Shown: piece after piece, positions 6,725 through 64,000 of the stretch
Layout of the letters: every line of letters starts with the position of its first letter
Numbering within the stretch: position 1 is the first letter of the stretch
NCBI GenBank assembly: GCA_965207375.1
Contig: OZ242274.1
Span: forward strand, 1,760,001-1,824,000
Source of the DNA: Nitrosopumilaceae archaeon
Lineage (GTDB): Archaea > Thermoproteota > Nitrososphaeria > Nitrososphaerales > Nitrosopumilaceae
Length of the DNA stretch: 64,000 nucleotides
Direction: 5' to 3'
Notes under the pieces: generated by a model
What the model saw: the letters and a program-made list of their open reading frames with translations, nothing else
Told to the model about the DNA's origin: nothing
Databases searched by the model: none
Made by a program: the position numbers and the translations under genes

Positions 6725-6806
6725 GTACTTGTTCACATAATAGAATTAATTTGTACCCAGATGGTGATGTAATGATTGAAAAATTAGGAACGAGGTGAAC
6801 AAGTAC
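6725..6806. repeat. 82-bp MITE-like repeat with perfect 12-bp terminal inverted repeats (empty copy)
   Basis: GTACTTGTTCAC (6725-6736) and GTGAACAAGTAC (6795-6806); interior matches 9565-9628 and 59505-59584. Confidence 0.9.
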
Positions 6807-6976
6807 GATTTATCCAAGCAGTCATTTTTTATTCCCATAACACTTTTTCGTGCATTGTTAATACTTTCAAAGATTTTGAAACCCATAGAAGATTTAACCG
6901 ACAATATAAAAAAGGATCAGGGTAATAACATAATCCACTTAAAACTTAAAGTAGAATCTTTAGAAAATTATACACA

Positions 6977-8860: not shown

Positions 8861-8968
8861 ATGAACCACGATGAGAAGGAAGATCCTGAAATGAAAGAAC
8901 TTGAAAAGGAAGTAGAAAAAGGATTAAAACGCAACAGCATTGTACATAACCTGCTTCATGATCTTTAA
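8861..8968 (+). CDS. 35-aa charged peptide, putative antitoxin of the Doc toxin
   Basis: MNHDEKEDPEMKELEKEVEKGLKRNSIVHNLLHDL*; overlaps the Doc start; TATA-like CTTATAA ~25 nt upstream. Confidence 0.6.
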   Translation: MNHDEKEDPEMKELEKEVEKGLKRNSIVHNLLHDL

Positions 8969-9545
8969 TTCTATAACTCCAAAAGAAATTATCTACATCC
9001 ACAAACTTGTTGAAAAAAGATTCAATTTACCATCTGGTCACATTAAAAACGGCGAACTAGAAACCCTTGTTTCCAAATGCTACAAGATACCATTTGCCAA
9101 AGAACGAACCGATGTCCTTGAACAAGCGGCGATTTTATTTGAAGGAATCATTCGACTTCACATATTCATTGATGGTAACAAAAGAACGGCGTTGGAAACC
9201 ACTCGTGTGTTTTTAAACCGTAATGATTGCATACTAGTAGTACCATTAAGTGGCGCTAATTTCATCTATAAAATTGCACAAAATTGTACTTCAGATACAG
9301 AGCAAATATTGTCTAAAATCACCAATTGGTTGAAATCACATACTGCAAAAAGAAATCAACATTACAAGATAAAGGGATTGTTAATGGTTCACTTTTACCT
9401 GCCACTATTTACAATACGCTTTTTTACAAAAATTAAACTGCGGAGATGTGGCAGATGGATTATCAAAAAATATCTTACGAATAAAGATCCACAGATCACA
9501 GAGTTTATGCTGGAAATTTATGAAAAACAATTAGATTTATTTTAG
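8958..9545 (+). CDS. Fic/Doc (death-on-curing) family toxin
   Basis: HIFIDGNKRTA Doc-type motif. Confidence 0.88.
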   Translation: MIFNSITPKEIIYIHKLVEKRFNLPSGHIKNGELETLVSKCYKIPFAKERTDVLEQAAILFEGIIRLHIFIDGNKRTALETTRVFLNRNDCILVVPLSGANFIYKIAQNCTSDTEQILSKITNWLKSHTAKRNQHYKIKGLLMVHFYLPLFTIRFFTKIKLRRCGRWIIKKYLTNKDPQITEFMLEIYEKQLDLF

Positions 9546-9684
9546 ATTCGTGATTACATTAGATGTGCTTGTTCACTTCATGTCTAATTTTTTAATCATT
9601 ACATCACCCTTTGGGCATAAATTAACTCCCATATGAAAAATCCCTTGGCTACGTGCCGGATCCTATACAGCGTGCATTTGCAGA

Positions 9685-10815
9685 TCAGGACATCTTTGCT
9701 AGGTCATCTAATCTATTATGTTTTCTCTGGGTCAGCTCACAATTCTGTGTTCTGTATTCTTCGTTGTTAGTCAGCATGTACCAAATTATCTCCAGCATGT
9801 GTCGCGCTACTGCAACCTTTGCCTTTTGTGCACCGTGTCTCTTTTTTATTCTCTCGTAGATTCTTTGCATTCTGGGATCATGCTGTATGGTTATTGTAGC
9901 TGCCTCAACTATGGCGTTTCTCATCCATACTGAACCCTCCTTTGTTATTCCTCCTCCTTTGTATGTGGATGCACTGTTACGGTGTGATGGTATTACGCCA
10001 CCTCCTGCAGCAAACTTTTCTGCAGTAGAATATCTTGTAATATCTACAAGCTCAGAAATTATTGTAAATGCTGTAATGTGTCTGATTCCTGGTATCGTCA
10101 TGAGCAGTTTTACTCTATCATCATCTTGTGCTATTTGTGCCATCTTTTGTTCTAGTTTGTTTACCTGTGCAATTGAAGTGTTTATGCATTCTAGATGTAT
10201 GTCCATTGACATGCGGTCTATTTCTGATATTGGCATACTTTCTAACCATTTCATTCCTTTTTTTGTAAACGCCCCATTGGTTGGGCACGTATAGTCATAT
10301 CTGGCAAGTATTGCATGGATTTTGTTTCTATGTCGTGCACCGTCTCGTTTGCATCCGCTTCTGGTTCTGACTAGATTCCTTAGATCTCTATAGTACTTGT
10401 TAGGTACAAAAGACTCGTATATCATGTCTGATTTTAATAAATCAGTTAGTATCTCAGAATCAAGCTTGTCGTCTTTTAGCTTGGCCTGTGCTATTATCTT
10501 CGTCTTTGCAGGATGTGCAAGTATTGTATCTATTCCCTCGTCTTCTAGCTTGTCATGTAATCTTATCCAATAGTTTGCAGTGGATTCACAGACTGCTCTT
10601 GCAGTGTCATTGTATGTTTCCTTTATGTGTTTGATAAAACCTGTTATGCCTTTTGTGTCGTTTGAAAATGTAATCTGTTCTAATTTCTTTTTGCTTTTAT
10701 CATTTTTTATGGTTGCAACACATTGTTTCTTGTGAACGTCTATTCCGATGTTGATGATATCATCACCTCCTTTTTGATCAAAATTTGTGGACTTGACCTT
10801 GCGGAATACTCCCAT
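9685..10815 (-). CDS. IS110-family DEDD recombinase/transposase (true start may be ~50 nt downstream)
   Basis: GIDVHKK, VCESTA, KDDKLDS (DEDD residues); LMTIPGI; HRNSAS (Tnp serine region); ITKEGS; KAKVAVAR. Confidence 0.95.
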   Translation of the reverse strand: MGVFRKVKSTNFDQKGGDDIINIGIDVHKKQCVATIKNDKSKKKLEQITFSNDTKGITGFIKHIKETYNDTARAVCESTANYWIRLHDKLEDEGIDTILAHPAKTKIIAQAKLKDDKLDSEILTDLLKSDMIYESFVPNKYYRDLRNLVRTRSGCKRDGARHRNKIHAILARYDYTCPTNGAFTKKGMKWLESMPISEIDRMSMDIHLECINTSIAQVNKLEQKMAQIAQDDDRVKLLMTIPGIRHITAFTIISELVDITRYSTAEKFAAGGGVIPSHRNSASTYKGGGITKEGSVWMRNAIVEAATITIQHDPRMQRIYERIKKRHGAQKAKVAVARHMLEIIWYMLTNNEEYRTQNCELTQRKHNRLDDLAKMS

Positions 10816-10911
10816 TCACCATTCATCAAAAACGTGGTATTTTGTTGTCCGCTTACTGTGAGCTAGTCTATTACTCACCTTCATACGAGGTATTGTTAAT
10901 TCAGCCCTCAG
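10801..10911 (-). ncRNA. Putative bridge/seek RNA (target-binding loop 10856-10911, donor-binding loop 10801-10852)
   Basis: Manually folded stems enclose AAUUAAC and GUAAUAGA, which match the two insertion flanks, and AUGGGA, which matches the circle junction. The true RNA ends are unknown. Confidence 0.75.
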
Positions 10912-10984
10912 ATCCAATATAATCAGTACGTAGCCGTAGGAGAAAAATTTTTCATATAACGTCTATTACGTAAACAAGCACGAA

Positions 10985-11510
10985 CCCTTGAGACCTATGC
11001 TGCCATGCGTCGTGTTTCATAAGTTGGCCTAAATGAGCTGATGTCTAATATTGCATCTTGCACCTGCAGATCAGGTGGTATGTCTCTTGGACTTGCAGTA
11101 TAGTACCGTGGCCTTTTTTGATACTACACAAAACTGTAGTGATTTATCTAGTCCTATGATATCACACGTGATAGACACTGCACTCATTTTTTGTCTTCCT
11201 CCAACGTTTTTTTTAAAGCGTCATTTGCCACTGCATACTCTCCTATTATCCTCTTAAGGGAGGAGATCTCTTTTTTGTGACGTTTGGCAAGCGATGATAT
11301 ATCAGAGTCGCTAAATGAGCTTTTGCCTGCTTTTAGGAACTTTTCCTTCCAGGCATAGACTGTTCTTGGTTGCAGGTTGTGCTGTCTGCATAATTCTGCC
11401 ATACTGGTTTCAGAGTTAAAGGTCTGTAACACGATACGTACCTTCTCATCTGTGCTCCATTTTGATTTTTTGTTCATATTTTGTATGGCCTCCTAGCGTG
11501 GTCCGCACCA
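10985..11510 (-). mobile_element. IS3-family remnant: intact OrfA (11184-11477) and degenerate OrfB start
   Basis: OrfA KWSTDEKVRIVL...AELCRQHNL....YAWK HTH; OrfB fragment RPTY*TRRMAA; probable TG end at 11510. Confidence 0.85.
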
Positions 11511-18010: not shown

Positions 18011-21000
18011 TTACGTGCGGATAGATCTATTTCGACGCATCAACAAATATACCAAAGCAACCACAGCAAACACACCCAGTATAGAATATACTATCAGCAG
18101 TGATGTTTGTGATAGGATGGATGGAGAAGAGTTTGTCTGCTGAATATCTGTTGGCTCTACAGAGATAACCGGTTCCAGTGGTTCAACGGGATCTAATGGC
18201 TCTGTAGGTTTTACAGGTTCTGTTGGTTCCAGTGGTTCAACGGGATCTAATGGTTCTGTAGGTTTTACAGGTTCTGTTGGTTCCAGTGGTTCAACGGGAT
18301 CTAATGGTTCTGTAGGTTTTACAGGTTCTGTTGGTTCCAGTGGTTCAACGGGATCTAATGGCTCTGTAGGTTTTACAGGTTCTGTTGGTTCCAGTGGTTC
18401 AACGGGATCTAATGGCTCTGTAGGTTTTACAGGTTCTGTTGGTTCTACATCATCAGTATCTGCTCGTTCAGTCATGTCACCAGATAATTTGTCACCAGTA
18501 TCAGATACAAGATTGCCTAAAGAATCACTTACTGAAATGCCCTTAATTATATCAAAGCGATGCACGCTTGAGCATTCACCAGATAGGGATAACGGCAATG
18601 TGGCTTTTTTGCCACTTTTATCATACACATTTATCTTAAAGGAAGACACGTCCGTTGACATGTCTGCAAAGTCGAACATGTACAGTTTTATCGGAGTATA
18701 TTTTGACACATATTTTGAAATATCGATATTGTAATTTTGTCCTATAATCGTAGTTTCCCCATAAGATACAGATGCTGCAAGATTGTCTCCATATGTAGCT
18801 GCAACAAGGACAAAATTGTTATGGATACCGCATTGATTGTATGTAACAGCTACAGGACCCAAGGTAAATCCACCACCACCTGCTCGGGATTGTACTTTGC
18901 CGGAGCTAGGTGAACTGACTGTGGTATCTTTATTTTCAACTGTATCAACTATGCGTACTGTCCTAGTCTGAGGTTCGGCATGATTGCTAGTAGAATCTAC
19001 ACATCTGTATGCTATTGTATAATCACCTAGAGTATCGGTAGTAACGCTACTTGTGTCAGCTGTAAGAGTAGGGTTTGGATCCATATCATCGATACATGTA
19101 ACATCCTTTAGTGCATCCACATTAGAAAAAACAGAATTTTTGTTTATTGTGATTGTATCAGAACCTATTATTTTAATTACGGGAGGAATTATATCGGAAT
19201 CTACAGTAAATGTAGGAGTTGCACTGACAATGACAAATGCTGGGCCTATCCCTACAGCATTAGTTGTATTTACTCTGAAATCATATGGTACGCCGTTTGT
19301 TAGATTTGACACAGTATATGACGTTACATTTCCTATAACATATGCATGGCTGGGCCATGGATCTGATGATGCCTTGTACTGTATAACATATCCGGTAATA
19401 GTGGATCCTCCATTGTCAGTAGGTGCAGTCCAACTCAATACTATTTGTATATCACCAGATGTAGCAAATAAATCTGATATTGCTGTAAGACCTGTTGGTG
19501 CAGCAGGTGTTCCAATTACGGTTACATTTCTAGTTTGTTGTATAGCAGAGTTGTTTGCATCATCAGTACAGATGTATGTTACGGTGTAGCTGCCAACAAT
19601 TGCAGTGTTGACATTTGTAATATCAGCTGTAAGAGTGGGACTTGAATCTTCAGTGTCTGTACATGTAACACCTACAAGTGCATCTGTAGCAGTAAAGGCA
19701 GAGTGTTGATGTACTATTATGGCATCAACAGGTGTTGCAATTACAGGTGGAACAGTATCAGGTACAGTGGATGCTGCAGGTGTTGCCTGTGCGGTACCAG
19801 AGGATATACCTGTACCTGCAATATTTGTGGCGTTGATTCTGAAATCGTACTGTATGCCGTTTGTCAGACTCGTGATAATACCAGTTGTTACATTGTTTAC
19901 AGTGGTACTAGTGCCAGGCCATGGATCTGATGAGGCTTTATGTTGTATGACATATCCAGTGATTGCAGAACCACCGTTGTTTGTAGGCGCAGTCCAGGAT
20001 AGAGACGCCTGTGCGTTGCCTGAATTGGCTACAGGACTAGATGGTGCACTAGGAACCGTAATGACATTTACTGTACGGACTGCATCTACAGAATTGTTAG
20101 AGTCGTCAGTACAGGTGTATGTTACCGTGTATGAACCAGCCGCAGAGTCATCAACTGTACTTGTATCAGTGAGCGTAGGAGTGGTATCTACATTGTCAGT
20201 ACATGTGGCACCTGCGTCTACATATGTTGTACCTACAGATATCGTAACATGATTATCACCGTTGATTACAATTGTAGGTGCGATATTATCAGGTGCTACA
20301 GGTGTTGCCTGTGCAGTACTTGATGCAGGACCTGTTCCTGCAATATTTGTTGCATTTACTCGAAACTGGTATGGTGTATCGTTTGTGAGACCTGTGACAG
20401 TTGTAGATGTTATAACAGATACCGCATCAGTAAAGGTACTCCATGATGTTCCTGCATTTGCACTGTATTGTATTGTATAATCTGTAATTGCAGAGCCTCC
20501 GTTGTTAGACGGGGCAGTCCATGACAATTCAACCTGTGCGTTGCCAGGAGTTGCTATAAGACCTGTTGGTGCAGCAGGTATTCCAATCACATTCACTGTA
20601 CGAACATGTTGTATGGCAGAATTGTTTGCAGCATCAGTACAGATGTACGTTACTGTATATTGGCCAACAGTAGAGGTATCAACGGTTCCGGTTTGTGTAA
20701 GTGAAGGATTAGGATCAAGGTTGTCAGTGCATGTTGCACCTGCGTCAGTGTATGTGGTGCCCAGTGTTATCGTGATAGAGTTTGCTCCGTTTATTGTAAT
20801 TACAGGTGCAGTCGTATCAGTAACAGGTGCTACAGGTGTTGCAGAAGCAGTAACAGATGTAGATCCCGTTCCTACTGTATTTGTAGCAGATACTCTGAAC
20901 TGGTAAGTTTGTCCGTTTGTCAAACCGGTAACAGTTGCAGTGGTGCCGGTTCCGATACCATCAGTAAAGGTACTCCATGATGTTCCTGCATTTGCACTGT

Positions 21001-24000
21001 ATTGTATTGTATAATCTGTAATTGCAGAGCCTCCGTTGTTAGACGGGGCAGTCCATGACAATTCAACCTGTGCGTTGCCAGGAGTTGCTATAAGACCTGT
21101 TGGGGCAGCAGGTATTCCAATTACTGTTACATTTCTAGTTTGTGATATAGCAGAGTTGTTTGCATCATCAGTACAGCTGTACGTTACAGTGTAGCTGCCA
21201 ACAATTGCAGTATTGACATTTGTAATATCGGCTGTAAGAATGGGGCTTGAATCTTCAGTGTCTGTACATGTAACACCTACAAGTGCATCTGTAACAGTAA
21301 AGGCAATATTTTGGTGTACTATGATAGCATTGCTAGGGGTTGCAATTACAGGTGGAACAGTATCAGGTACAGTAGATGCTACAGGAGTTGCCTGTGCGGT
21401 ACCAGATGATAGACCTGTTCCTGCAATATTTGTAGCATTGATTCTAAAATCATACTGTATGCCGTTTGTTAAACTAGATATCGTATGAGAAGTAACATTT
21501 CCTATAGTAACAGTGGTGCCAGGCCATGCATCTGTTGATGGTTTATGTTGTATGACATATCCGGTAATTGCAGATCCTCCATTATTAGGGGCAGTCCAGG
21601 ATAGAACGATTTGCGCATCACCAGGAGTTGCTATAAGACCTGTTGGGGCAGCAGGTATGGTTCTAGGTGTTACACCTACACTATCAGATGCTATACCCGT
21701 ACCTGCTGTATTTGTAGCAAATACTTGGAACTGATATGTAACTCCGTTTGTTAGACCTGTGACAGTTGTAGTTGTATCTGTGTTAGTGCCGTCATTGACT
21801 GCAATCCAGTTTGTTCCTGCATCTACACTGTACTGTATGGTATAATCGGTAATTGCAGATCCTCCTGTATCAGTTGGTGCAGTCCAGGACAGAGACACCT
21901 GTGAATTTCCAGGTGTTGCTGCAAGACCGGTTGGTTGACCTGGAACACTTCGTGGTGTTGCCTGTACTATACCAGATGATACGCCTGTGCCTGCCTGATT
22001 CGTTGCGTTAATTCTGAAATCATACTGTATGCCGTTTGTTAAACCTGTAATGGTATTAGAGGTTACATTGCCTAGAGTAACAGAGGTGCCAGGCCACGGA
22101 TCTGTTGATAGTTTATGTTGTATGGTATATCCTGTAATTGGGCTACCTCCGTTGTTTGTAGGTGCAGTCCAGGATAGAGACACCTGTGCGTTTCCCGGAT
22201 TGGCTGCAGGATTGGTTGGTGCAGCAGGTATGGTTCTAGGTGTTGCATCAGCAGTAGCAGAGAGCGTACTTTGTCCTATGTTAGTTACAGCAAATACTTG
22301 GAACTGATATTCCTGTCCATTTGTTAGACCTGTAACAGTTGTAGAGGTATCGTGGTTAACGCCATCATCAAATGTACTCCATGAGGTTCCAGCATTTGCA
22401 CTATACTGTATGAGATAATCTGTAATTGCAAAGCCGCCTGTATCAGATGGTGCAGTCCAAGATAGGGACACCTGTGCGTTGCCAGGTGTTGCTCTGAGAT
22501 CTGTTGGTGCGTCTGGTGCATCTTGTGGAGTTGCAAATATTGGGATTGATGCCTCACCAGTTCCTACAACATTTGTGGCATTTACTCTAAAATCGTACTG
22601 TACACCGTTTATCAGATTCTCGATTCGCCATGAGGGTATGTTGGTGACGATAACAGACGTACCGGGCCACTCTGCAGATGATGGCTTGTATTGTAATGTA
22701 TATCCTATAATTGCAGAGCCGCCATTGTTAGTTGGTGCAGTCCAGAGCAGTACGACATTTCTGTCTCCAGGTACGGCAGATAAGCCAGTAGGTGCACCTG
22801 GAACTGTAATAACAATTACTGTACGAACTGCTTGTGCAGAATTATTAGAGTTATCTACACAGATGTATGTTACAGTGTATGAACCAGCTGTAGAGTCATC
22901 AACTGTACTGACGGCATTAAGGGTAGGAGTAGAATCTGTATCATCAGTACATGTGGCACCAGCGTCTACATATGTTGTACCTATAGATATCGTAACAGGA
23001 TTGGCACCGTTTATTGTAATTGTAGGCGGTGTACTATCAGGTACAGTAGATGCTACAGGGATAGCCTGTACGATACCAGACGATACACCTGTACCTGCTG
23101 TATTTGTAGCGTTAATTCTGAAATCATACTGTACACCGTTTGTCAGACCTGTGATGATATGTGAAGTGACATTACCTATAGTGGTACTAGTACCAGGCCA
23201 TGGATCTGTTGATTCCTTATGCTGTATTGTATATCCTGTAATTGGGCTACCGCCATTGTTTGTAGGCGGAATCCAGGTTAATGAGACCTGTGTGTTGCTA
23301 GGTGTTGCAGATAAGCCGGTTGGTGCTGTAGGTCTTCCAATTACATCCAGCGATACAACGTTTGATGCTACATTATCATTGCCTACGACATCCTGTGCAG
23401 AACCGGCAGGTATGCTTACGGTCAATAGTCCCCGTGAGGAGTTTATCACATCAAAGTGCATGTCGCGCTGTACGTAAATTCGGTTATTATTAGAATCAGA
23501 TATGTAAATTTCTCCCTTATCTCCAAGGATAATTCCTGAGGGGTATTGAAACCGATCGTTGCCTGAACCTAAACTATCAAACTGAGATAGGTAATTGCCA
23601 GAGCTATCAAATATTTGGATTCTATCATTACCTATTTCTGCAACATACATGTGATCTGTACCGTTGATTGCTATTCGGTAGGGAGAATCAAACTGACCGT
23701 CGCCTGCACCTTCACTACCAAATTCGGTTAGAAAGTTGCCTGCATTATCAAAGATTAGAATTACATCTCTATGTTGATCAGTCACAAAGATATGACCTGT
23801 AGAATTTATTGCAATGCCTATGGCGGTCTGAAATCCACCTTCGGTAAGACCAAAATTTCCAAATTCTGACAGATAGTTGCCAGAAATATCAAAGATTTTA
23901 ATATTATTATTGCCAGTATTTACCACATACACATGGCCTGTATCGGTGATTGTTATTCCTTGTGGACGAGTAAGTTGATTATCTCCAAGATCATTGCTAC

Positions 24001-27000
24001 CAAACTGGGACACATATTTGCCAGAGCTATCAAATATTTGGATTCGGTGATTGTCGGTATCTGGAACATAGACGTAACCCGTGCTGTTGATTGCAATTCC
24101 TATAGGGTCTGCAAACTGGCCGTCACCTGAGCCTGCACTACCAAACTGTGAAACATATACGCCCTCATTATCAAATATCTGGACGCGATTGTTGAATGAA
24201 TCTACTACAAATATGTGACCGGTGCCGTTGATTGCAATATCCTCGGGGGCATCAAACTGGCCATCACCTGAGCCTCCACTACCAAAAGAGCCGTAAAACG
24301 GCGTAATTAAATTCTGTATTGTCCCAGAAGATGTCAAAATATCAGAGGATGTAATACCGGTCACATGCTCGCTGAATCGTGCAATAAATGAAATGGTAGA
24401 AAGAGAGGTAGGATCAGGCGATGCTACAGGCGATGCTACAGACAGTACCACAGATGGAGGTGTGGCATCAAATACCAATGATGATACAGTTGATGCAGAA
24501 CCTGTTCCAACTATATTTGTAGCATTTACTCTGAAATCATATCGTAGGCCGTTTGTAAAACCAGTTAGATCATGAGAGGTAATATTTCCTAGAGTAACAG
24601 ATGTTCCGGGCCAAGCAGAAGAGGATACTTTGTATTGTATAACATATCCAGTTATTGGACTACCACCGTTATTAGGGGCAGTCCAAGATAGAGACATCTG
24701 TTGTCTTTCTTGTTGTATTGTAAAGTCAGTTGGTGCAGCAGGTGTTCCAATTACGGTTACATTTCTAGTTTGTGATATAGCAGAGTTGTTTGCATCATCA
24801 GTACAGCTGTACGTTACGGTGTAGCTGCCAACAATTGCAGTGTTGACATTTGTAATATCGGCTGTAAGAATGGGGCTTGAATCTTCAGTGTCTGTACAGG
24901 TAACACCTACAAGTGCATCTGTAACAGTAAAGACAGTATTTTGGCGTACTGTTATGGCATCGCTAGGTGTCGCAATTACAGGAGGGGTGGTATCAGGTGC
25001 AATGGATACCACAGGTGTTGCCTGTGCGGTACCAGATGATAGACCTGTTCCTGCAACATTTGTGGCATTGATTCTAAAATCGTACTGTATGCCGTTTGTT
25101 AAACTAGGTATCGTATGAGAGGTAACATTTCCTATAGTAACAGTGGTGCCAGGCCATGCATCTGTTGATGGTTTATGTTGTATGGCATATCCAGTGATTG
25201 GGCTACCTCCGTTATTAGGGGCAATCCAGGATAGAACTATTTGTGCATCACCAGGTGTTGCTGTAAGAGTAGTTGGTGCAGCAGGTATGGTTCTAGGAGT
25301 TGCATCAGCAGTACTAGATGATTCACCTGTTCCTGCAACATTTGTGGCATTTACTCTGAATCGATAAGTATCTCCGTTTGTGATACCTGTGACAGTTGCA
25401 GAGGTATCTGTGCTAGTGCCGTCATTGACTACAGTCCAAGATGCTCCTGCATTTGCACTGTATTGTATTGTATAATCAGTAATTGCAGAGCCACCGGTAT
25501 TAGAGGGGGCAGTCCAAGATAGAGACACCTGTGCGTTACCTGGAGTTGCTGTAAGACCAGTTGGTGCAGCAGGTATGGTTCTAGGAGTGGCACCAACAGG
25601 ATCAGATGCTCTACCTGTACCTGCTGTATTTGTAGCAAATACTTGGAACTGATATGTAACTCCGTTTGTTAGATCTGTAACAGTTGTAGAGGTGTCGGTT
25701 CCCATACCGTCTGCAAATGCGGTCCAGATGTTGCCATCGGTACTGTACTGTATTGTATAATCTGTAATTGCTGAACCTCCAGTATTAGAGGGAGCAGTCC
25801 AAGATAGAGACACCTGTGCGTTACCTGGAGCTGCTGTAAGACCAGTTGGTACACCCGGAACACCTATCGGAGTTGCAGATACAGTGTTTGAAGATATACC
25901 TGTGCCTGCAACATTTGTGGCATTGATTCTGAAATCATACTGTATGCCGTTTGTCAGGCTTGTTATGATACGTGATGTTACATTGTTTACAGTAACAGAT
26001 GTTCCAGGCCAAGTATTAGATGATTCTTTATACTGTATTGTATATCCGGTAATTGGAGAACCTCTGTTATTTGTAGGTGCAGTCCATGACAATGTAACTT
26101 GTGCATTGCTAGGTTCTGCTGTAAGAGTTGGTTCACTAGGGGTTCCAATTACTGTTACATTCCTACTCTTCTGTACGGCAGAGTTGTTTGCATCATCTGT
26201 ACAGCTGTACGTTACAGTGTAGCTGCCAACAATTGCAGTGTTGACATTTGTAATATCAGCTGTAAGAGAGGGGTTTGAATCTTCAGTATCTGTACAGGTA
26301 ACACCTACAAGTGCATCTGTAACAGTAAAGGCAGCATTTTGGTGTACTATTATGGCATTGCTAGGTGTTGCAATTACAGGCGGAGTAGTATCAGGTGAAG
26401 TAGATGCTGTAGGTGTTGCCTTTGCAGTGTCGGATACAGGACCTATTCCTGCTGTATTTGTGGCGTTGATTCTGAAATCATATGGCACATTGTTTACAAG
26501 ATCTCTGATTGTATATGATCCAATATTTCCTACAGTGACAGTGGCAGTGGTACTAGACCAAATGGATGTAGATACCTTGTGTTGTATGACATATCCAGTA
26601 ACAGGTGAACCGCCGTCATCATGTATAGTCCAAGACAGAACAACTTGTGCGTTACCAGGTGTAGCTGTAAGACTCGGTGCACCCGGTAGGGTTCTAGGAG
26701 TAGTAGTAGCAATAGCAGAAGGCATACTTGTTTCTACAGTATTTGTAGCAAATACCCTAAATTGGTAAGTAACTCCGTTTGTCAAACCTGTAACAGTTGT
26801 AGTGGTTGTAGTTCCAATACCGTCATTAAATGTGTGCCAAGAAGTACCAGAGTTTGAGCTGTACTGTATAATATAATCTACAATTGCAGAGCCGTCAGTA
26901 TCAGGTGGTGCAGTCCAGGACAGAGTAACTTGAGTGTTGCCAGGGGTAGCTGTAAGACCTGTTGGCATACCAGGCGTTCCAACTATATTCAAAGATACAA

Positions 27001-30000
27001 TATTTGAGACAGTATTATTATTTCCTGATGCATCCTGTGCAGAACCTGCAGGTATGCTTACTGTTAACTGTCCTTTTGCAGGATTTACCACACTAAAAAA
27101 ATATGCATCGCGTTGTACGTAGATTCGGTTGTGTTCATTATCGGTTATGTAAGTTCCCTGAGTCGGACCAAAGGCAATATCAACCAGACGGGAAAAATTT
27201 GGAGGGGCAAAATCTGAGAGATAATTGCCAGAAGGATCATATGTCTCAAAGCTGTGATAAAGATAGTACTTTACATAAATACGATCAGATGAGTCAATTG
27301 CCACATTAATTGGAGAAAAAGATCCGGGGGCCGTATTTCCAAGCTGCGATAGATACTTGCCGGTATCGTCAAAGATTTGTATGCGGTGGTTGTTAAAATC
27401 TGCCACAAATATGTGACCTGTACTGTTTATTGCTAGTCCGCGGGGGAGGCCAAATTGTCCATCTCCTGAGCCTGCACTGCCAAACTGTGATAGGTATTTG
27501 CCGGTATCGTCAAAGATTTGTATGCGGTGGTTTCCATGATCTGCCACAAATATGTGACCTGTAGAGTTTATTGCTATTCCTTGTGGGGAGTTAAACTGTC
27601 CATCTCCTGCGCCTGCACTGCCAAACTGTGAGATAAATTTACCAGAGGGGTCAAATATCGAAATGCGATTGTTACCCGAATCTGCCACATGTATATTACC
27701 CAAAGGACCCACTGCAATATCACCTACACCATTAAACCTGTCATTGCCTGAGCCGGTACCACCAAACTCTGAGATATAGGTACCCGTACCATCAAATATC
27801 GAAATGATGCTGTCAGTATCATCTGCCGCAAATATGTGACCTGTGGAGTTTATTGCAATTGAACCTGCACTGGCAAACTGGCCGTCGCCTGAGCCGATAC
27901 CTCCAAAGTGACCATTAACAGGGGAAAACATAATCTGCGCTGTTCCAGAAGATATTGAAATATCAGATGCATTAAATCCAGTTACAGGTTCACTGAATCG
28001 GACTATAAACGGAATTGTGGAAAGATTTGTTGGATCAGGAGACAGAGTAGTCAATATCACAGATGGAAATTCCGCATCAATTGTAAAGGATATGACATCA
28101 GATGCAGTACCATTTCCTACAGCATTTGTTGCATTCATTCTTAAATCGTACTGACCACTTTCAAGACCGTATATTGTATGCAAGGTAACTTGAGGCACTC
28201 GCACAGATGTTCCTGGCCACTCCTCTGTTGATAATTTGTACTGTACAATGTATCCAGTAATAGGTGAACCTCCGTTTCCGGGAGCAACCCAACCCAGTTC
28301 TATTTGTCCACCACTTGGCGTCGAAGATGTGATAACAGGTACGCCGGGGACTGTGCGAGGTGTGGCGCTGACAATATCAGATGTGTCACTTTCTCCTGCA
28401 ATGTTTATAGCAGATACTTGAAATTGGTATTCCTGTCCGTTTGTCAGACCGGTGATAATAGCAGATGTTGTATTTGAGATGCCATCATCAAATGCTTGCC
28501 AGGACGTACCTGAATCAGAACTATACTGTACTGTATAATCAGTGATTTCAGAGCCTCCATCATCAGATCTAGTCCAATTAAGTGTAACTTGTGCATTGCC
28601 ATATGTTGCAGTTAAACCAGTTGGCTTGTCAGGTATTTTAATTACGGTCAAAGTTATCTCATTTGAGGCAATGTTATCTATGCCTGCTTTATCCTGTACA
28701 GACCCTGCAGGTATGCTTACTGTAAGTTCTCCTTGTATCGGGTTTGTTACATCAAAAGAGTATACATCGCGTTGTGCATAGATTCTATTGTTTGAACTAT
28801 CTACTACATATAGGAATCTAGAATCGATGGTAATGCCTTTTGGGGAATTAAACTTGTCGTCGCCTGAGCCATGACTACCAAACTTTGAGACAAAGTTTCC
28901 TGAAGAATCAAAAATCTGGATACGATGATTGTTTGTATCTGCAACATAAACGTGGCCTGTACCGTTGATGGCTATTCCTTGTGGCGCGTTGAATTGACTA
29001 TCACCTGAGCCATGACTACCAAACTTTGAGACAAAGTTTCCTGAAGAATCAAAAATCTGGATACGATTCTGATTCAAATCCGTCACGTATATGTATCCTG
29101 TATCGTTGATTGCTATACCGTAAGGCTGGATAGTCTGACCATCATTTGTACCTCTGCTGCTAAAGAAGGAAATGCGCGTATTAGAACTATCAAATATCTG
29201 GATGCGATTTTGGTATGAACTTTCTGTCACATATATGTATCCAGTGCCGTTGATGGCTATGTCTTGAGGTTCATTAAATCCAGGGATTTGTGAAACATGT
29301 TTTCCTGTACTGTCAAATATCTGGACACGATTGTTTCCAAGATCTGCCACGTATACGTAACCTGTACCATTGATGGCTATTCCGGTTGGCTGATCAAGCT
29401 GATCATTGCCCGAACCACTTTCTCCAAAATCTGAAATATATTTTCCTGTACTGTCAAATATCTGAATAGTATCTGAACTTGCATCTGTCACATATACATA
29501 ACCCGTACCGTTAACTGCTATTCTATCTGGAGTCGAAAGAGGATCTGTACCAAAGTAGCTAATTGGTGGAATTAAATTCTGAATGGTTCCAGAGGAGATA
29601 GAAATATCTGATGCGTTAAAGCCAACAATAGGTTCGTTGAATCTAGCAACAAATGGAACTGAGGTAAGAGTAGTTGGGTTGGATGCAAATGTAGACAATG
29701 TCACATAAGGTTTGGCAATGATAAATTGAAGGGACACAGTAGTAGATGCTGTGCCTGCTCCTGCAGCATTTGTAGCATTTACTCTAAAATCATAAAACAC
29801 ATCTTCTGTCAGACCGGTTATTATATGAGAGGTAAAATTGCCTATGTTCACAGATGTACCAGGCCACTCTGCTGATTGTTCCTTGTACTGTATGATATAG
29901 CCGGTGATAGGTGAGCCTCCGTTACTAGGTGCGCTCCAGGACAGTGACATCAACAAGTCATCAGGTGTTGCAGTTAGACCTATAGGAGTGCTAGGTACTG

Positions 30001-33000
30001 TACGAGGTGTAGAATCAACGACATTAGATGCAATACTTGTTCCTGCATTATTTGTAGCGTTTACCCGGAATTGATACACCTGTCCATTTGTCAAACCGGT
30101 GACAATTACAGAGGTATCAGCAGATACATCATCAGAGAATGTAGTCCAAGATGTACCCGAATCAGAACTGTGCTGTATGGCATAATCAACAATTGGAGAT
30201 CCACCATCGTTTACAGGTGCAGTCCATTCAAGCGTAACTTGTGTGTTGCCCGGTGTTGCCTCAAGAGCAGTTGGTGCATCAGGTACTGTAATTACGGTCA
30301 GAGTTATCTCATTTGATGCAACATTATCGTTGTCTGTCTCATCTTGTACAGATCCTGCAAGTATGCTTACGGTTAACTGTCCTGCAGGAGGGTTCACCAC
30401 GTCAAAGGAATACACATCACGTTGTACAAATATACGGTTATTGCCAGTATCTACAACATAAAGATCGTTTGTGGAATCAAATACTAGTCCTACCGGGAAA
30501 CGAAATGAAACTGGATAAGAACTTCCAAATGTTGATAGATAGTTGCCTGAAGGATCAAATATTTGGACGCGGTTACCATTTGTATCTGCTACATATACAT
30601 GGCCTGTACCGTTGATGGCTATTCCGCTTGGAGTATGAAACTGACCATCACGTGAACCAGAACCGCCAAACTGTGAGATAGAATTGCCTGAAGGATCAAA
30701 TATTTGGACGATATGGGATAATTCAGATGTAACATAGACGTGACCTGTAGCGTTTATGGCTATTCCGTTTGGGGAAGAGCTGGGAAACTGTGAAATATAG
30801 TTGCCTGAAGGATCAAATATTTGGACGCGGTAGGAAGCGGAATCGACGATATGGACGTGACCCGTAGCGTTGATAGTTATTCTGTGTGGCCTATCAAACT
30901 GACCATCACCGAAACCACGGCTGCCAAACTGTGAGACAAAGTTGCCTGAAGGATCAAATATCTTAACTAGATTGGTTGTAGATGTAACATAGATATAATC
31001 TGTAGAGTTGATGGCTATTCCGCGCGGGTTAGTAAATCTGGAATCATCAAATGTATGGCCGCTAATCTGTGAAACATATTTTCCAAAGGTATCAAAAATC
31101 TGAATGCGGTGGTTGAAAGTATCTGCCACATATATGTAGCCCGTAGAGTTGATGGCTATTTCGGTAGGAGTCTGAAACTGCCCATCACCTGTACCTCTAG
31201 TGCCAGAATAAAAACCAAGCAAACCTTTCACATTCTGCACAGTTCCAGAAGATGCAGAAACATCTGATTCATCAAAGACAGTTACTGATTCGCTAAATAT
31301 TACGGTAAATGGAATGGCAGTAAGATATGTGATATCTTCTGCACTAGTCAAAAGTCTTACAGTTGGAGATACATCAATTGTAGAAAATAACACAATAGAG
31401 TCATCAATTGTATTTCCACTCAAATCGCTAAATGCTGTAGCATTTACCTTTAGATAGATTTTGCCAGCAAGTGACATTACGCTTGAGCTTTGTGATGCAG
31501 TAAGAGATATCATGATACGAATATCATTATCTGTATTGGTTATACTGGCACCTGTAAGACTCACATCGCCAGCATTGTTACTGAGACTGTTTGAAATTGA
31601 CAGTTTAGTTAGATCAATTTCTGTGGCATTTATTGTTTCATTAAAATCAATTAGTAAATTTTGATCAGGTGAATCTGGATCAAATGAAACTTTGAGTAGG
31701 GCTGGTTTTGTCGTGTCTGGACTTATACTTATTGCATTGTCGTAATCGTCTTCGTTTGCAACATTATTTATTGTCTTGACTGCACCTGAATCAATATCTA
31801 GCTCTAATTGCTGACCTAGTACAAGTATAGCAGTTCGCTGTACTTCATTTATCACAATTTCAAGAATACGTGCATCACCAGTATCAGATACCATGGCACC
31901 ACCCAATGTTACTCCTCCTGACGAATTCCCAAGTTGACGAATGTGGAACTTTGTTAGATCAACGTTTGATATAGGAGTGAGATCTATGGTTTTATCAAAT
32001 GTTACCTGCAAGGAACGTACAGTATCGTCAAGATCAAGTGTGGTACCAGTTACATCAGGCAAGGTAGATTCCTCCACTGTTATTGTTATAGTATCACTGC
32101 CGGTGTTGCCTGCCTTATCAGTAGCATATGCAGAGACAACATGATCTCCAGGTGATAGTGTTGCAGTTATTGCAGTACCTGTACCCAAAGTATTGTCACC
32201 AGAACTCCATTGTATTGATTCTATATTTCCATCCTTGTCGTCTATTGCAATTGCCTCAAAACTCGCGCTTCCCGATGGAAGACGAGCGTTGTTAGATGGT
32301 GAATTTATGGTCACAACAGGGACTATCATGTCAATTACAACCTCACTGTTTAGTGCAATAGGGCCCACCTTGGCACTAGGATTTATCTCAATCTCAAGAT
32401 CTGGTGGAGGCAGCATGACAATTACATCTTCATTTGGCGAGGCTTGTGCCTTTATTGTGCCGCCATTGAGCTGAAGTGACATTTTAGACTCATAGTTGAG
32501 ATCTTCAGTATCATCGCCGTCCTGTATGATATATGAGAATGTCAATTTGGATGTACCATTGCCTGAGGCATATGTTGCATATCTGTCAGTTGTTCCAAGA
32601 TCTAGCTTGATGCGGGGTGTACCCGTAACTATTACAGGTTCTGAAAAATGTACAGATATAGAAATTGTGCCATCCCTGTAATTGCCAGAGGGAGAAGAGA
32701 CACCGTATGGAAATACGGTCTTGTCAAGGGACAAGATATAAACACTACCATGACCTTCAAATACTGGACTGCCACCTCGAAAATCAGATCTATAATGTGG
32801 CACCCCTACTGCAAGGTCCACAATACCATCCCCGTTATAATCATCAATAGATTCAATAGATTGACCAAAAAACGACGATGGAACAAGTGAAGTTGGAATT
32901 GTTTTATGGTTTAACTCTACAAAATCCTTTATTCCTCCAGCATCATTTAAGAGTATTACAAATATGGCACCACGGTCTCCAGCTTCGCGTCCGCTTGCAC

Positions 33001-51523: not shown

Positions 51524-53051
51524 GTAAGTGTTTACGTCATGCCTAGATTTTGACCATTTACGATCAAATTTTTGGCAACATGATCTAAATGAGGTCAAAT
51601 AGCCAAACCATACATTGACAGATTTCAAAAAACTCTACAAAGCCGAACGAACTAAGAATCTAAAACTCGAACAGATGATGGAGTTGAAAGATGCTATTAT
51701 ACAAAAAAAAGATGACAACGAAAAAAAACTAAAAGATCTAGTAAAGGAGCTAGAAAACGACATACACAATTTGAAAACTATTGCCAAGGATCTTAATAAA
51801 AAACTCCAATTTTATGATAACGCACATACTCCACCATCACGCAAGATGCCAGAAAAAAAGAAAACTGAGAATAAAAACAAGGATAAAAACAAGAAAACAA
51901 CAGGTGAGCGAGGAGCACCAAAGGGACACAAAGGTGCAACAAGCAAGCCAAAACCTACAAAATTCAAACAACACACGCCAGCAAAATGTCCAGAGTGTGG
52001 CTCAAAAGATCTTAAAATTATCAAAACACAGATACGTGACATTACAGAGGTACCACCACAGGTACAACCTGAAACAACACGTCATCATGTAGATTTGTGT
52101 TCATGTAAAAGCTGTGGCAAAAAAGACATAATCCCAGAGACTGATTTTCCTACCAAAGGCAATTATGGTAACAATATAGTAACACAGGCAGTAGCAAATT
52201 ATATCGACAGATTACCCCACCGCAGAAACGCAGAAGCATTGACCTTGAGGGGAATCAAAATATCTCCAGCTTCTGCACACAACATAATAACTATGGTTGG
52301 TGCGTGCCTAACGGCACCCACAAAACAACTCCTAAAGGCAATCAGGGCTGCAGTCCTGTTACACATAGATGAGACATCAATACACCTAAACGGCAAAAAC
52401 GTATGGGCGTGGGTATTTTACATTCCAGGTACAAATACTGCACTGTATGTGGTACGACCTAGCAGGGGAAGAGACGTACTCGAAGAGATACTGGGAGATG
52501 ACTGGAAGGGAACAATCATCTGTGACGGACACAAACCGTACATGGTATATGATATCCAGAGATGCTGGGCTCACATCATGCGTGAGATGCACCACGAGAC
52601 ACAAAAATGTGGATGTAAAAAATGTCTGGGTGCACTAGAGGCTCTCAAAAAAATCTATGAGGATGCAAAAGATACCATAACTGCACGTATCTCGTATAAA
52701 CGGCGCAAAAAAATACGGCGCAATCTGTATCGTCGTGTAAAGAGGATTATTGATACATACACTCCATTGCACAATCTCAAAAGATTCATGGGAAAGCTGG
52801 GACGAGCCCTGCCAAACCTGTTCAGGTTTGTACTGGATCCTACCATACCTCCTACCAACAATGCAGCAGAACGTGCACTGCGTGAGATTGTCGTACACAG
52901 AAAAATACGAGGTGGAATCAGATCTGAGAAAAGCATGGAGACATTGGGCAATCTGTTTTCATGTGTGATGACGTGGAGAAATGCTGGATTAAATTATCTA
53001 GAAGAGATGGTAAAATACCTCTAGAGACGTAAAAACCACGTTAACACTTAC
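51524..53051 (+). mobile_element. IS66-family (single-ORF, ISBst12-like) element with 8-bp TSD
   Basis: Ends GTAAGTGTTTACGT and ACGTTAACACTTAC; ATTATTTT at 51516-51523 and 53052-53059. Confidence 0.95.
51615..53024 (+). CDS. IS66-family transposase
   Basis: Coiled coil, TPPS, CPECG/CKSCG, HIDETS, ICDG, QRCWAH, PTNNAAERALR. Confidence 0.95.
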   Translation: MTDFKKLYKAERTKNLKLEQMMELKDAIIQKKDDNEKKLKDLVKELENDIHNLKTIAKDLNKKLQFYDNAHTPPSRKMPEKKKTENKNKDKNKKTTGERGAPKGHKGATSKPKPTKFKQHTPAKCPECGSKDLKIIKTQIRDITEVPPQVQPETTRHHVDLCSCKSCGKKDIIPETDFPTKGNYGNNIVTQAVANYIDRLPHRRNAEALTLRGIKISPASAHNIITMVGACLTAPTKQLLKAIRAAVLLHIDETSIHLNGKNVWAWVFYIPGTNTALYVVRPSRGRDVLEEILGDDWKGTIICDGHKPYMVYDIQRCWAHIMREMHHETQKCGCKKCLGALEALKKIYEDAKDTITARISYKRRKKIRRNLYRRVKRIIDTYTPLHNLKRFMGKLGRALPNLFRFVLDPTIPPTNNAAERALREIVVHRKIRGGIRSEKSMETLGNLFSCVMTWRNAGLNYLEEMVKYL

Positions 53052-59423: not shown

Positions 59424-59504
59424 GATACTAGTATAGCGGTGCACAATTTGAAACAATGCGTGTTTCAAACCATATCGGTACACAATGTAGGTATTTGAAA
59501 AAAA

Positions 59505-59584
59505 GTACTTGTTCATCTAGTGCTTAATTTTTTAATCATGACATCACCATCTGGGTACAGATTAACTCTTACGTGAACAAATAC
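59505..59584. repeat. MITE-like repeat, empty copy with a degenerate 8-bp TSD
   Basis: GTACTTGTTCAT ... GTGAACAAATAC; flanks GAAAAAAA and GAAAAAAT. Confidence 0.85.
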
Positions 59585-62520: not shown

Positions 62521-64000
62521 GTAAGTGTTAACGTGGTTTTTACGTCTCTAGAGGTATTTTGCCATCTCTTCTAGATAATTTAATCCAGCATTTCTCCAAG
62601 TCATCACACATGAAAACAAATTGCCCAATGTCTCCATGCTTTTCTCAGATCTGATTCCACCACGTATTTTTCTGTGTACGACAATCTCACGCAGTGCACG
62701 TTCTGCTGCATTGTTGGTAGGAGGTATGGTAGGATCCAGTACAAACCTGAACAGGTTTGGCAGGGCTCGTCCCAGCTTTCCCATGAATCTTTTGAGATTG
62801 TGCAATGGAGTGTATGTGTTAATAATTCTCTTTACACGACGATACAGATTGCGCCGTATTTTTTTGCGCCGTTTATACGAGATACGTGCAGTTATGGTAT
62901 CTTTTGCATCTTCATATATTTTCTTGAGAGCCTCTTGTGCACCCAGACATTTTTTACATCCACATTTTTGTGTCTCGTGGTGCATCTCACGCATGATGTG
63001 AGCCCAACATCTCTGGATATCATATACCATGTACGGTTTGTGTCCGTCACAGATGATTGTTCCCTTCCAGTCATCTCCTAGTATCTCTTCGAGTACGTCT
63101 CTTCCCCTGCTAGGCCGTACCACATACAGTGCAGTATTTGTACCTGGAATGTAAAATACCCACGCCCATACGTTTTTGCCGTTTAGATGTATTGATGTCT
63201 CATCTATGTGTAACAGGACTGCAGCCCTGATTGCCTTTAGGAGTTGTTTTGTGGGTGCCGTTAGGCACGCACCAACCATGGTTATTATGTTGTGTGCAGA
63301 AGCTGGAGATATTTTGATTCCCCTCAAGGTCAGTGCTTCTGCGTTTCTGCGATGAGGTAGTCTGTCGATATAATTTGCTACTGCCTGTGTTACTATATTG
63401 TTGCCATAATTGCCTTTTGTAGGAAAATCAGTCTCTGGGATTATGTCTTTTTTGCCACAGTTTTTGCATGAGCACAAATCTACATGATGACGTGTTGTTT
63501 CAGGTTGTACCTGTGGCGGTACTTCTGTAATGTCACGTATCTGTGTTTTGATAATTTTAAGATCTTTTGAGCCACACTCTGGACATTTTGCTGGCGTGTG
63601 TTGTTTGAATTTTGTAGGTTTTGGCTTGCTTGTTGCACCTTTGTGTCCCTTTGGTGCTCCTCGCTCACCTGTTGTTTTCTTGTTTTTATCCTTGTTTTTA
63701 TTATCAGTTTTCTTCTTTTCTGGCATCTTGCGTGATGGTGGAGTGTGTGCGTTATCATAAAATTGGAGTTTTTTATTAAGATCCTTGGCAATAGTTTTCA
63801 AATTGTGTATGTTGTTTTCTAACTCCTTTACTAGATCTTTTAGTTTTTTTTCGTTGTCATCTTTTTTTTGTATAATAGCATCTTTCAACTCCATCATCTG
63901 TTCGAGTTTTAGATTCTTAGTTCGTTCGGCTTTGTAGAGTTTTTTGAAATCTGTCAATGTATGGTTTGGCTATTTGACCTCATTTAGATCATGTTGCCAA
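62521..64000 (-). mobile_element. Second IS66 copy, inverted (transposase 62548-63957); left end beyond the window
   Basis: Starts GTAAGTGTTAACGTGG; the 469-aa protein differs from the first copy at only a few residues. Confidence 0.95.

Follow-up and report, generated by a model that had tools for sequence, protein, structure and literature searches.

The window analysed here, a stretch of 64,000 nucleotides from a Nitrosopumilaceae archaeon (assembly GCA_965207375.1, contig OZ242274.1, positions 1,760,001 to 1,824,000 of the forward strand), carries an IS110-family insertion element, and the question it raises is whether the non-coding left end of this element encodes an RNA that guides the recombinase to its insertion site. 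We consider it likely, with a probability of about 0.87, that the left end encodes a bispecific guide RNA (a bridge or seek RNA) in the same sense as the recombinase gene. An earlier reading of the same letters, made without database searches (the sequence-only reading), had proposed an archaeal IS110-family guide RNA whose loops match the target and donor of its own element. This proposal is supported by the protein family, the archaeal small-subunit (SSU) rRNA of the host, covariation within the RNA and covariation of the loops with the flanks. All coordinates are window positions, and the element and its guide RNA lie on the minus strand; G000 denotes the window's own genome and L numbers denote loci of element copies and relatives.

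The element spans 9627-10961 (1335 bp, with one copy of the core dinucleotide GA counted), as delimited by homology to other copies, uninterrupted sites and the loose ends of contigs. At the left junction, GTAATA (10969-10964) and GA (10963-10962) are followed by CGTTATATG (10961-10953), while at the right junction CATATGG (9635-9629) and GA (9628-9627) are followed by GTTAATT (9626-9620); read again on the minus strand, these junctions are the same as those written in the sequence-only reading. Homology with the other copies in the genome, where a search with 1401 bases returned 15 places (copies and fragments), ends at GA/CGTTATATG on the left and at CATATGGGA/G on the right, and contigs of public runs depart from the window sequence at 9621, 9622 and 9630 and at 10958 and 10978. 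The left target half GTAATA with the core GA (10962-10969) and the right target half GTTAATT (9620-9626) are contiguous in uninterrupted sites: the joined 15-mer (8 bases from the left and 7 from the right) has two exact copies in the genome, at C1:203093 and C1:484309, against 0.05 expected, and a genome scan found 7 sites with at most one mismatch and 33 with at most two. Right ends of the same subfamily elsewhere in the genome carry GTTAATT, GTTAATT, GTTAATG, GTTAATG and GTTAAGC. Taken together, the boundary evidence and the empty sites define an element at 9627-10961 with the core GA and the target GTAATA-GA-GTTAATT (in the form GTAATAGAGTTAATT), which lies inside a scattered palindromic repeat.

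The best uninterrupted sites belong to a short repeat whose termini are 12-bp inverted repeats (GTACTTGTTCAC...GTGAACAAGTAC), and a BLAST search with one uninterrupted member (260 nt) gave 45 rows against the genome, itself included. In the window, the element splits one such palindromic repeat of ~82 bp into a left part at 10962-10981 and a right part at 9565-9626, the latter ending in GTGAACAAGCAC, the inverse of GTGCTTGTTTAC at 10970-10981. The element has subterminal inverted repeats, ATATGAAAAAT on the left (10947-10957) and ATTTTTCATAT on the right (9631-9641), which measure 11 bp in the window copy and at least 7 bp in 31 of 34 loci (range 7-12 bp); their sequence varies between subclades, yet the two ends remain matched. 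The non-coding left end is ~200 bp long (10759-10961), compared with 58 bp for the right end (9627-9684).

The recombinase gene occupies 9685-10758, as assigned from Pfam, NCBIfam, an alignment with IS621 and a comparison of start codons, and its product is a member of the IS110 family. It possesses a DEDD RuvC-like domain and a Tnp domain (PF01548, E 2.6e-21; PF02371, E 1.2e-19), obtains 224.5 bits on NF033542, “IS110 family RNA-guided transposase”, for which the cut-off is 140, and aligns with IS621 (8wt6) at E 2.3e-13 and 53 bits; in this alignment the aspartate of GID, the glutamate, both residues of D..D and the G--P----S serine all coincide. The host is archaeal: among the models of the clan, the archaeal one fits its SSU rRNA best, at 1444.9 bits. 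The best bacterial match of the recombinase, on an Allorhizobium plasmid, is 34.5% identical, and ISAzs32 shows 21% identity. The probable start codon is ATC at 10758-10756, preceded by GGAGGTGA at 10770-10763. The open frame extends over 9685-10815, up to the sole in-frame ATG upstream (10815-10813), which is also the AUG of the donor guide AUGGGA described below; because a stop closes this frame in another subclade (L060), the extension is not a conserved coding region.

Homologues were collected by a six-frame protein search over 61 related genomes (E <= 1e-30) and by a scan of one genome per species, which gave 51 recombinase loci. A left-end profile (nhmmer) run on all loci returned 64 rows, and 52 full-length segments (50 distinct) were aligned. 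A covariance model, named R1, was built from five helices (P1-P5), and its pair statistics were taken on 52 distinct rows. In the window R1 matches 10783-10921 with 119.7 bits (E 1.7e-27), and each of its 56 matches lies either in front of a homologous gene or within a fragment of such an end.

The predicted guide RNA core, of ~127 nt or more, covers 10789-10915 and consists of a closing helix (P1), a target arm and a donor arm. In P1, GGAUCUGA (10908-10915) pairs with UCAAGUCC (10789-10796); its two outermost pairs are mostly unpaired, so that P1 is effectively a helix of six pairs, and these six inner pairs are kept in relatives (for example, one is G-C in 39 and A-U in 10 sequences, and another U-A in 36, C-G in 7 and U-G in 6). 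The target arm has an outer stem P2, formed by GGGCUG (10902-10907) and UAGCUC (10860-10865), and a hairpin P3, ACCU-CGUAUGA-AGGU (10877-10891), in which alignment pair 31-84 is G-C in 35 sequences and A-U in 16. The donor arm has an outer stem P4, formed by GCGGA (10848-10852) and UCCGC (10801-10805) and paired at 91.2%, and a hairpin P5, ACCA...UGGU (10818-10838, with strands at 10838-10835 and 10821-10818), in which pair 132-161 is G-C in 22, A-U in 19 and C-G in 3. Across the 52 distinct sequences, standard pairs fill 88.9% of cells, compared with 28-53% when the partners are slid by 1-3 columns; 18 of the 27 pairs show compensatory changes, and none of 500 shuffles reached the covariation score. 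These statistics lean towards structure because the alignment was fitted to R1. RNAalifold, given a MAFFT alignment of 43 sequences, recovered P2, P3 and P5 unaided and with many double changes; it missed P1 and P4 in this alignment, in which MAFFT had shifted subclades by one column.

P2 is paired at 98.4%, with compensatory changes in four of its six pairs, and its closing G.U pair is kept in 51 of the 52 sequences. Since this pair would be C.A on the opposite strand, the RNA has the same sense as the gene, in agreement with the earlier remark that the G-U pairs work on the transposase strand. As for the two hairpins drawn in the sequence-only reading, the target loop of the first was right, while the lower part of its outer stem (CUG/CAG) is more readily accounted for as the P1 strand that pairs with 10789-10796. 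The AAUAC/GUAUU inner stem of the second conflicts with the ACCA/UGGU pairing of P5, which covaries over the 52 distinct sequences; P5 uses the A and C that the earlier drawing had paired elsewhere, and for this reason both that stem and its proposed donor guide ACG were rejected. Two further pairings were considered and dropped: a CCU/GGG helix proposed by RNAalifold, which involves the invariant guide, was set aside, and a pairing between the AAAU linker and the nucleotide triplet that precedes P4, inspected by eye, gave no consistent covariation and was not counted. A TATA-like TTATAT stands in the left end at 10958-10953 and is missing in the Cenarchaeum-like subclade; we take this motif, speculatively, to be of the archaeal promoter type.

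Each arm contains an internal loop, and the loop strands of the target arm correspond to the two halves of the target. The 5′ strand (10892-10901) comprises the right target guide AAUUAAC (10895-10901) and a linker AAU, and the 3′ strand (10866-10874) comprises the left target guide GUAAUAGA (10874-10867, six nucleotides plus the core GA) followed by C. In the window copy, GUAAUAGA is identical to the left flank and core at 8 of 8 positions and AAUUAAC is the reverse complement of the right flank at 7 of 7, as had been noticed from the letters alone; from genome-wide frequencies, chance would give 0.004 such 8-mers and 0.019 such 7-mers in 160 nt. Loop strands were then read from the alignment and flanks from the sequence, locus by locus. 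L096, whose left end is cut, was left out of these guide tests, and right flanks were used only where a right end was found, which was not the case for 16 of the 50 loci (among them L083, L089, L006 and L078, whose motif matches were dropped as not credible). The right ends of L019, L062, L056, L069, L071, L072 and L033 were placed by hand, and for L005 the right end of L003 was used, the two being assumed to be halves of one copy. Permutation tests used one locus per distinct guide and 100,000 permutations.

Both target guides change together with the flanks. The left target guide matches the left flank at a mean of 5.61 of 7 positions over 49 loci, compared with 2.85 for mismatched pairs, and at least five identities occur in 42 of the 49 loci as against 10% of mismatched pairs; with the 28 distinct guides the mean is 5.46, versus 2.93 ± 0.23, a value reached in none of the permutations. 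The match spans positions -8 to -3 plus the core, and position -9 is unmatched. For the right target guide, complementarity to the right flank begins at the first base of the flank, with a mean of 5.09 of 7 over 34 loci against 3.19, and with five or more matches in 21 of the 34 loci against 11% of mismatched pairs. For its 20 distinct sequences the mean is 4.80, versus 3.30 ± 0.22, and again none of the permutations reached it; in each case, observed or null, the highest-scoring of three registers was taken for this guide. The alignment of homologues and the test of loops against flanks that the sequence-only reading had suggested as a check thus speak for it.

The donor loop appears to correspond to the two ends of the element. 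On its 5′ strand, CAACA (10843-10847), the middle three nucleotides form the right donor guide and pair with bases 2-4 of the left end (GTT); strand nucleotides 2-4 are Watson-Crick partners of left-end bases 4-2 at 0.88-0.98 over 49 loci, compared with 0.50-0.66, and with 12 distinct guides 1 of 100,000 permutations reached the observed value. Three of the four guides therefore covary with the DNA that they would address. On the 3′ strand (10809-10815), the left donor guide AUGG with the core GA (AUGGGA, 10815-10810) is followed by G. As the earlier reading had it, AUGGGA stands for the left donor half plus core: it equals the last four nucleotides of the right end plus the core, and the right end of the element reads ATGGGA in 31 of 34 loci.

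The single nucleotides that follow the left guides show a crossed pattern. Behind the left target guide stands the base with which the element's left end begins in 42 of 49 loci, and the base that opens the right target half in 3 of 34. Behind the left donor guide it is the other way round, the G agreeing with the opening base of the right target half in 33 of 34 loci and with that of the left end in 0 of 49. In IS621, according to PMC11208158, nucleotides next to a guide fit the non-cognate partner and are termed handshake guides, and the crossed nucleotides found here would fit such a role. We treat this as a lead only, because the same pattern also equals the junctions of the integrated element and is mostly invariant. 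A separate observation concerns L017 (G003:C3), where a full element is preceded by a duplicate of its own first ~100 bp (~1200-1310 and 1302-1508) and the duplicate ends exactly at the left-target-guide DNA plus core, as if the DNA of the guide itself had acted as a half-target or had provided a direct repeat for duplicating this part.

Given this arrangement, we propose the following mechanism. The RNA would fold as two arms closed by the common helix P1, with P2, an internal loop and P3 forming the target arm and P4, an internal loop and P5 forming the donor arm. GUAAUA-GA on the 3′ strand of the target loop would pair with the bottom strand under the left target half and GA core, AUGG-GA on the 3′ strand of the donor loop would pair under the element's right end and core, and three nucleotides on the 5′ strand of the donor loop would pair with left-end bases 2-4. 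The DEDD/Ser recombinase would then bring the circle junction (…CATATGG-GA-CGTTATATG…) to the target GTAATA-GA-GTTAATT, its natural target being the short palindromic repeat scattered over the genome, and strand exchange at GA would yield the junctions found in the window. Transcription, binding of the RNA, the circular intermediate, catalysis and the handshake role of the single nucleotides we infer from IS621 and ISEc11; that the recombinase is complete and programmable, as the sequence-only reading had put it, we likewise infer.

The closest published systems are the bridge RNA of IS621 (Durrant et al. 2024, Hiraizumi et al. 2024) and the seekRNAs of IS1111-type elements (Siddiquee et al. 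2024). Like IS621, the element combines a DEDD and serine recombinase with an RNA in the left end, upstream of the gene, and with two internal loops (target and donor) that each hold a left and a right guide; it shares a core dinucleotide between target and donor, and its guide-adjacent nucleotides fit the non-cognate partner. Unlike IS621, the order of guides within each loop is reversed, the core is GA instead of CT, the subterminal inverted repeats measure ~10 bp instead of 2-3 bp, the two arms are connected by a closing helix, the donor loop has shorter guides of 6 + 3 nt, the protein is remote (53 bits) and the host is archaeal. According to PMC11208158 and PMC11208160, the left target guide of IS621 (A50-U58) lies on the 5′ strand of the loop and the right guide (G77-G80) on the 3′ strand; here the right guide is on the 5′ strand and the left guide on the 3′ strand, in both loops and in all subclades. 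The reversal suspected in the sequence-only reading is thereby upheld, and it is the order of IS1111-type seekRNAs. The upstream position that it had given the RNA also stands (10789-10915, against 9685-10758 for the gene).

With the IS1111-type seekRNAs (ISEc11, ISPa11, ISKpn4), the element shares a top-strand match that precedes the bottom-strand match in the 5′ to 3′ direction, subterminal inverted repeats of a length between 7 and 17 bp and a repeated short sequence as target; ISPa11, according to PMC11187229, targets repetitive extragenic palindromic (REP) sequences. The same paper describes the order of top-strand before bottom-strand match as that of IS1111-type seekRNAs, reversed in IS110-type ISEc21, and gives IS1111-type elements subterminal inverted repeats together with a downstream non-coding region, with few exceptions such as ISMtsp17. 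In our element, by contrast, the RNA is upstream and just 58 bp lie downstream. ISEc21 also has an upstream non-coding region and a short RNA matching both target strands, but its bottom-strand match comes first, whereas the top-strand match is first here. ISMtsp17, an IS1111 relative mentioned in PMC11187229, likewise joins IS1111-like features with an upstream non-coding region. Judged from these sequence features, the clade combines the guide polarity and subterminal repeats of the IS1111 type with the RNA position of the IS110 type.

Two other explanations of the left end have to be considered. The structure might be an mRNA leader, a regulatory element or a DNA site bound by protein, with the protein picking the target and the loop-flank matches incidental or copied. 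The region is situated immediately before the ribosome-binding site, and in the window copy and in L018 the donor-loop AUG shares the reading frame of the gene; but 28 left and 20 right distinct guides change with the flanks of independent insertions in many genomes, complements to top and bottom strand that overlap a shared core are what proven bridge and seek RNAs show, a stop interrupts the upstream frame in the L060 subclade, and the compensatory changes are of the RNA type, G.U pairs included. We therefore consider this explanation very improbable. Still less probable, in our estimation, is an ordinary bridge RNA of the IS621 type (IS110 subgroup) with standard geometry. Such an RNA would also lie upstream of the gene, as in the IS110 subgroup (PMC11208160), and would also have two internal loops, but a guide order opposite to the IS621 positions described in PMC11208158 holds in all subclades, and the subterminal inverted repeats of 7-12 bp are not the 2-3 bp of that subgroup.

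Several observations weigh against the guide-RNA interpretation or against a functional window copy. Thirteen of the 34 right flanks match the right target guide at 4 of 7 positions or fewer, and the register of this guide shifts by 1-2 nt between subclades. The left donor guide is invariant, so that identity and not covariation can be stated for it, and donor recognition would depend on just 6 + 3 nt. The fold of the single sequence that the sequence-only reading had called for gave a minimum free energy no better than shuffles (z = +0.71), Rfam 15 returned chance-level matches only (E >= 3.9) and no bridge-RNA match, and no public RNA runs are listed as containing the stretch. The contigs of four public runs of DNA or unknown type contained no circle junction, excision joint or empty allele. 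P1 has one C.A mismatch in the window copy, where L002 has C-G. Relatives start with ATG or TTG after GGAGGTGA, while ATC is present in all G000 copies that hold this part. Finally, the fit of L002 to its own flanks is poor (5/9 and 4/7); the left end of this copy is of the other subfamily's type, so that it could have arisen by recombination.

Some of these points bear on a further possibility, namely that the RNA is real and the window copy a relic, its guides recording a past insertion of an element that is no longer mobile. The ATC codon and the C.A mismatch fit a relic, and so does the state of the element in the rest of G000, which holds, besides the window copy, a near-full copy (L002, 95%), a split copy (L005 left and L003 right) and many fragments across the genome. 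Both other long copies are broken: L002 has a TGA in the gene, and the other is without the N-terminus and the left end. In the window copy, on the other hand, the frame is open over its full length with all catalytic positions present, the ATC is preceded by a strong GGAGGTGA and has the in-frame ATG at 10815 upstream, and the guides match the flanks perfectly (8/8 and 7/7), which suggests a recent insertion event, while perfect unoccupied targets exist. A relic is thus rather unlikely, though we give it far more weight than the two explanations above. As separate observations on the same genome, six loci (L008, L009, L011, L012, L013 and L015) are solo right-end fragments of 29-110 bp that stand beside GTTAAT... 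flanks with no other element part adjoining, and these may have been left by deletions or by half-site events. Three or more further lineages of IS110-family recombinases, multicopy and 28-34% identical to the window recombinase, are present as well (G000:C1 at 12525, 610198, 875850 and 1246087; at 625624 and 1528609; and at 355919).

Among relatives, recombinase matches at E <= 1e-30 were found in 10 of the 61 related genomes, G000 included, and the closest recombinases outside G000 are 49-57% identical. Of the 51 loci from the species scan, 43 are in records titled Thaumarchaeota, Nitrosopumilus, Nitrosotenuis, Cenarchaeum, Nitrosotalea or Nitrososphaera, 6 are in spirochaetes at 22-24% identity, and 2 are on a contig filed under a Poribacteria metagenome-assembled genome (MAG). 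A survey with R1 of 151 genomes sampled from the class, including one unpublished genome (G173), found the RNA in 8, all in the window's family (7 of 150 without G173); by family, it occurs in 7 of 80 genomes of the window's family when G000 is not counted and in 0 of 70 of other families. The RNA adjoins homologous recombinase genes, almost all in ammonia-oxidising archaea. With filters off, R1 gave no credible match at the Allorhizobium, haloarchaeal, ISAzs32 and spirochaete loci or at the other IS110 paralogues of the genome; the highest score, 17.3 bits (E 0.013), was obtained upstream of a relative with 38% identity. The two loci under the Poribacteria (bacterial) MAG, L048 and L063, lie 9 kb apart on a 96-kb contig (CBDAOT010000007.1), and, flanked as they are by other transposase genes, they could reflect either mis-binning or transfer between domains.

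Other features of the window deserve a brief record. Members of the target repeat family, ~80-100 bp each, are located at 6725-6820, at 9565-9626 with 10962-10981 and at ~59494-59569, and weak Rfam matches to a C/D-box snoRNA at 9529-9604 (E 3.9), inside the repeat, look like chance. To the left of the interrupted repeat, an open frame of 97 aa at 11184-11477 on the minus strand carries the transposase helix-turn-helix HTH_Tnp_1 (PF01527), and directly to the right of the element there is a Fic/DOC-family open frame at 8940-9545 on the plus strand. Nested direct repeats with units of 9, 141, ~285 and ~570 bp, 60-100% alike, fill 18100-31200, which is probably a gene for a giant repetitive protein. 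A 1480-bp inverted repeat, 98% complementary, has its arms at 51572-53051 and 62521-64000, 9.5 kb apart, and probably represents two copies of another mobile element.

The finding should be seen against a growing catalogue. Vaysset et al. count 662 archaeal IS110 recombinases (10.1101/2024.06.21.599552), and Durrant et al. predicted bridge RNAs for 85.7% of IS110-group and 93.0% of IS1111-group ISfinder entries. A 2026 preprint (10.64898/2026.10.21.760802) reports 86 bridge-RNA models over 32,190 bacterial and archaeal loci, many of which deviate from the IS621 structure. That an archaeal IS110 element should carry a guide RNA is no surprise to the field, since NCBI already names the family “RNA-guided transposase”, archaeal recombinases have been catalogued and these 86 models exist. 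We found no paper in the literature on a thaumarchaeal bridge RNA or on the mixed layout, though the supplementary lists of loci and models that accompany the papers cited may well contain it, and it is doubtful that the layout has gone undescribed. Only tentatively would we speak of a bridge-recombinase lineage of one ammonia-oxidising archaeal family (in the sampled genomes) with a layout of its own, reprogrammed many times as its 28 left guides suggest. That layout would unite IS1111-type polarity and repeats with an upstream RNA, with two arms that share one closing helix and with a single crossed “handshake” nucleotide behind each left guide.

What the locus provides is sequence-level evidence for an archaeal IS110-family element with a bridge or seek RNA of the working type, whose guides have been re-set many times and whose target is a defined repeat, together with a covariance model and a guide map that are directly testable. 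The published split, in which IS110-type elements have an upstream RNA with the left guide first and IS1111-type elements a downstream RNA with the right guide first, fails for this clade. If the interpretation is true, archaeal IS110 recombinases use guide RNAs as the bacterial ones do, which would be relevant to the link proposed with Nop5 and C/D-box RNAs. To our knowledge, genetic tools are lacking for this group of ammonia-oxidising archaea, and the element would then offer them a native programmable insertion tool.

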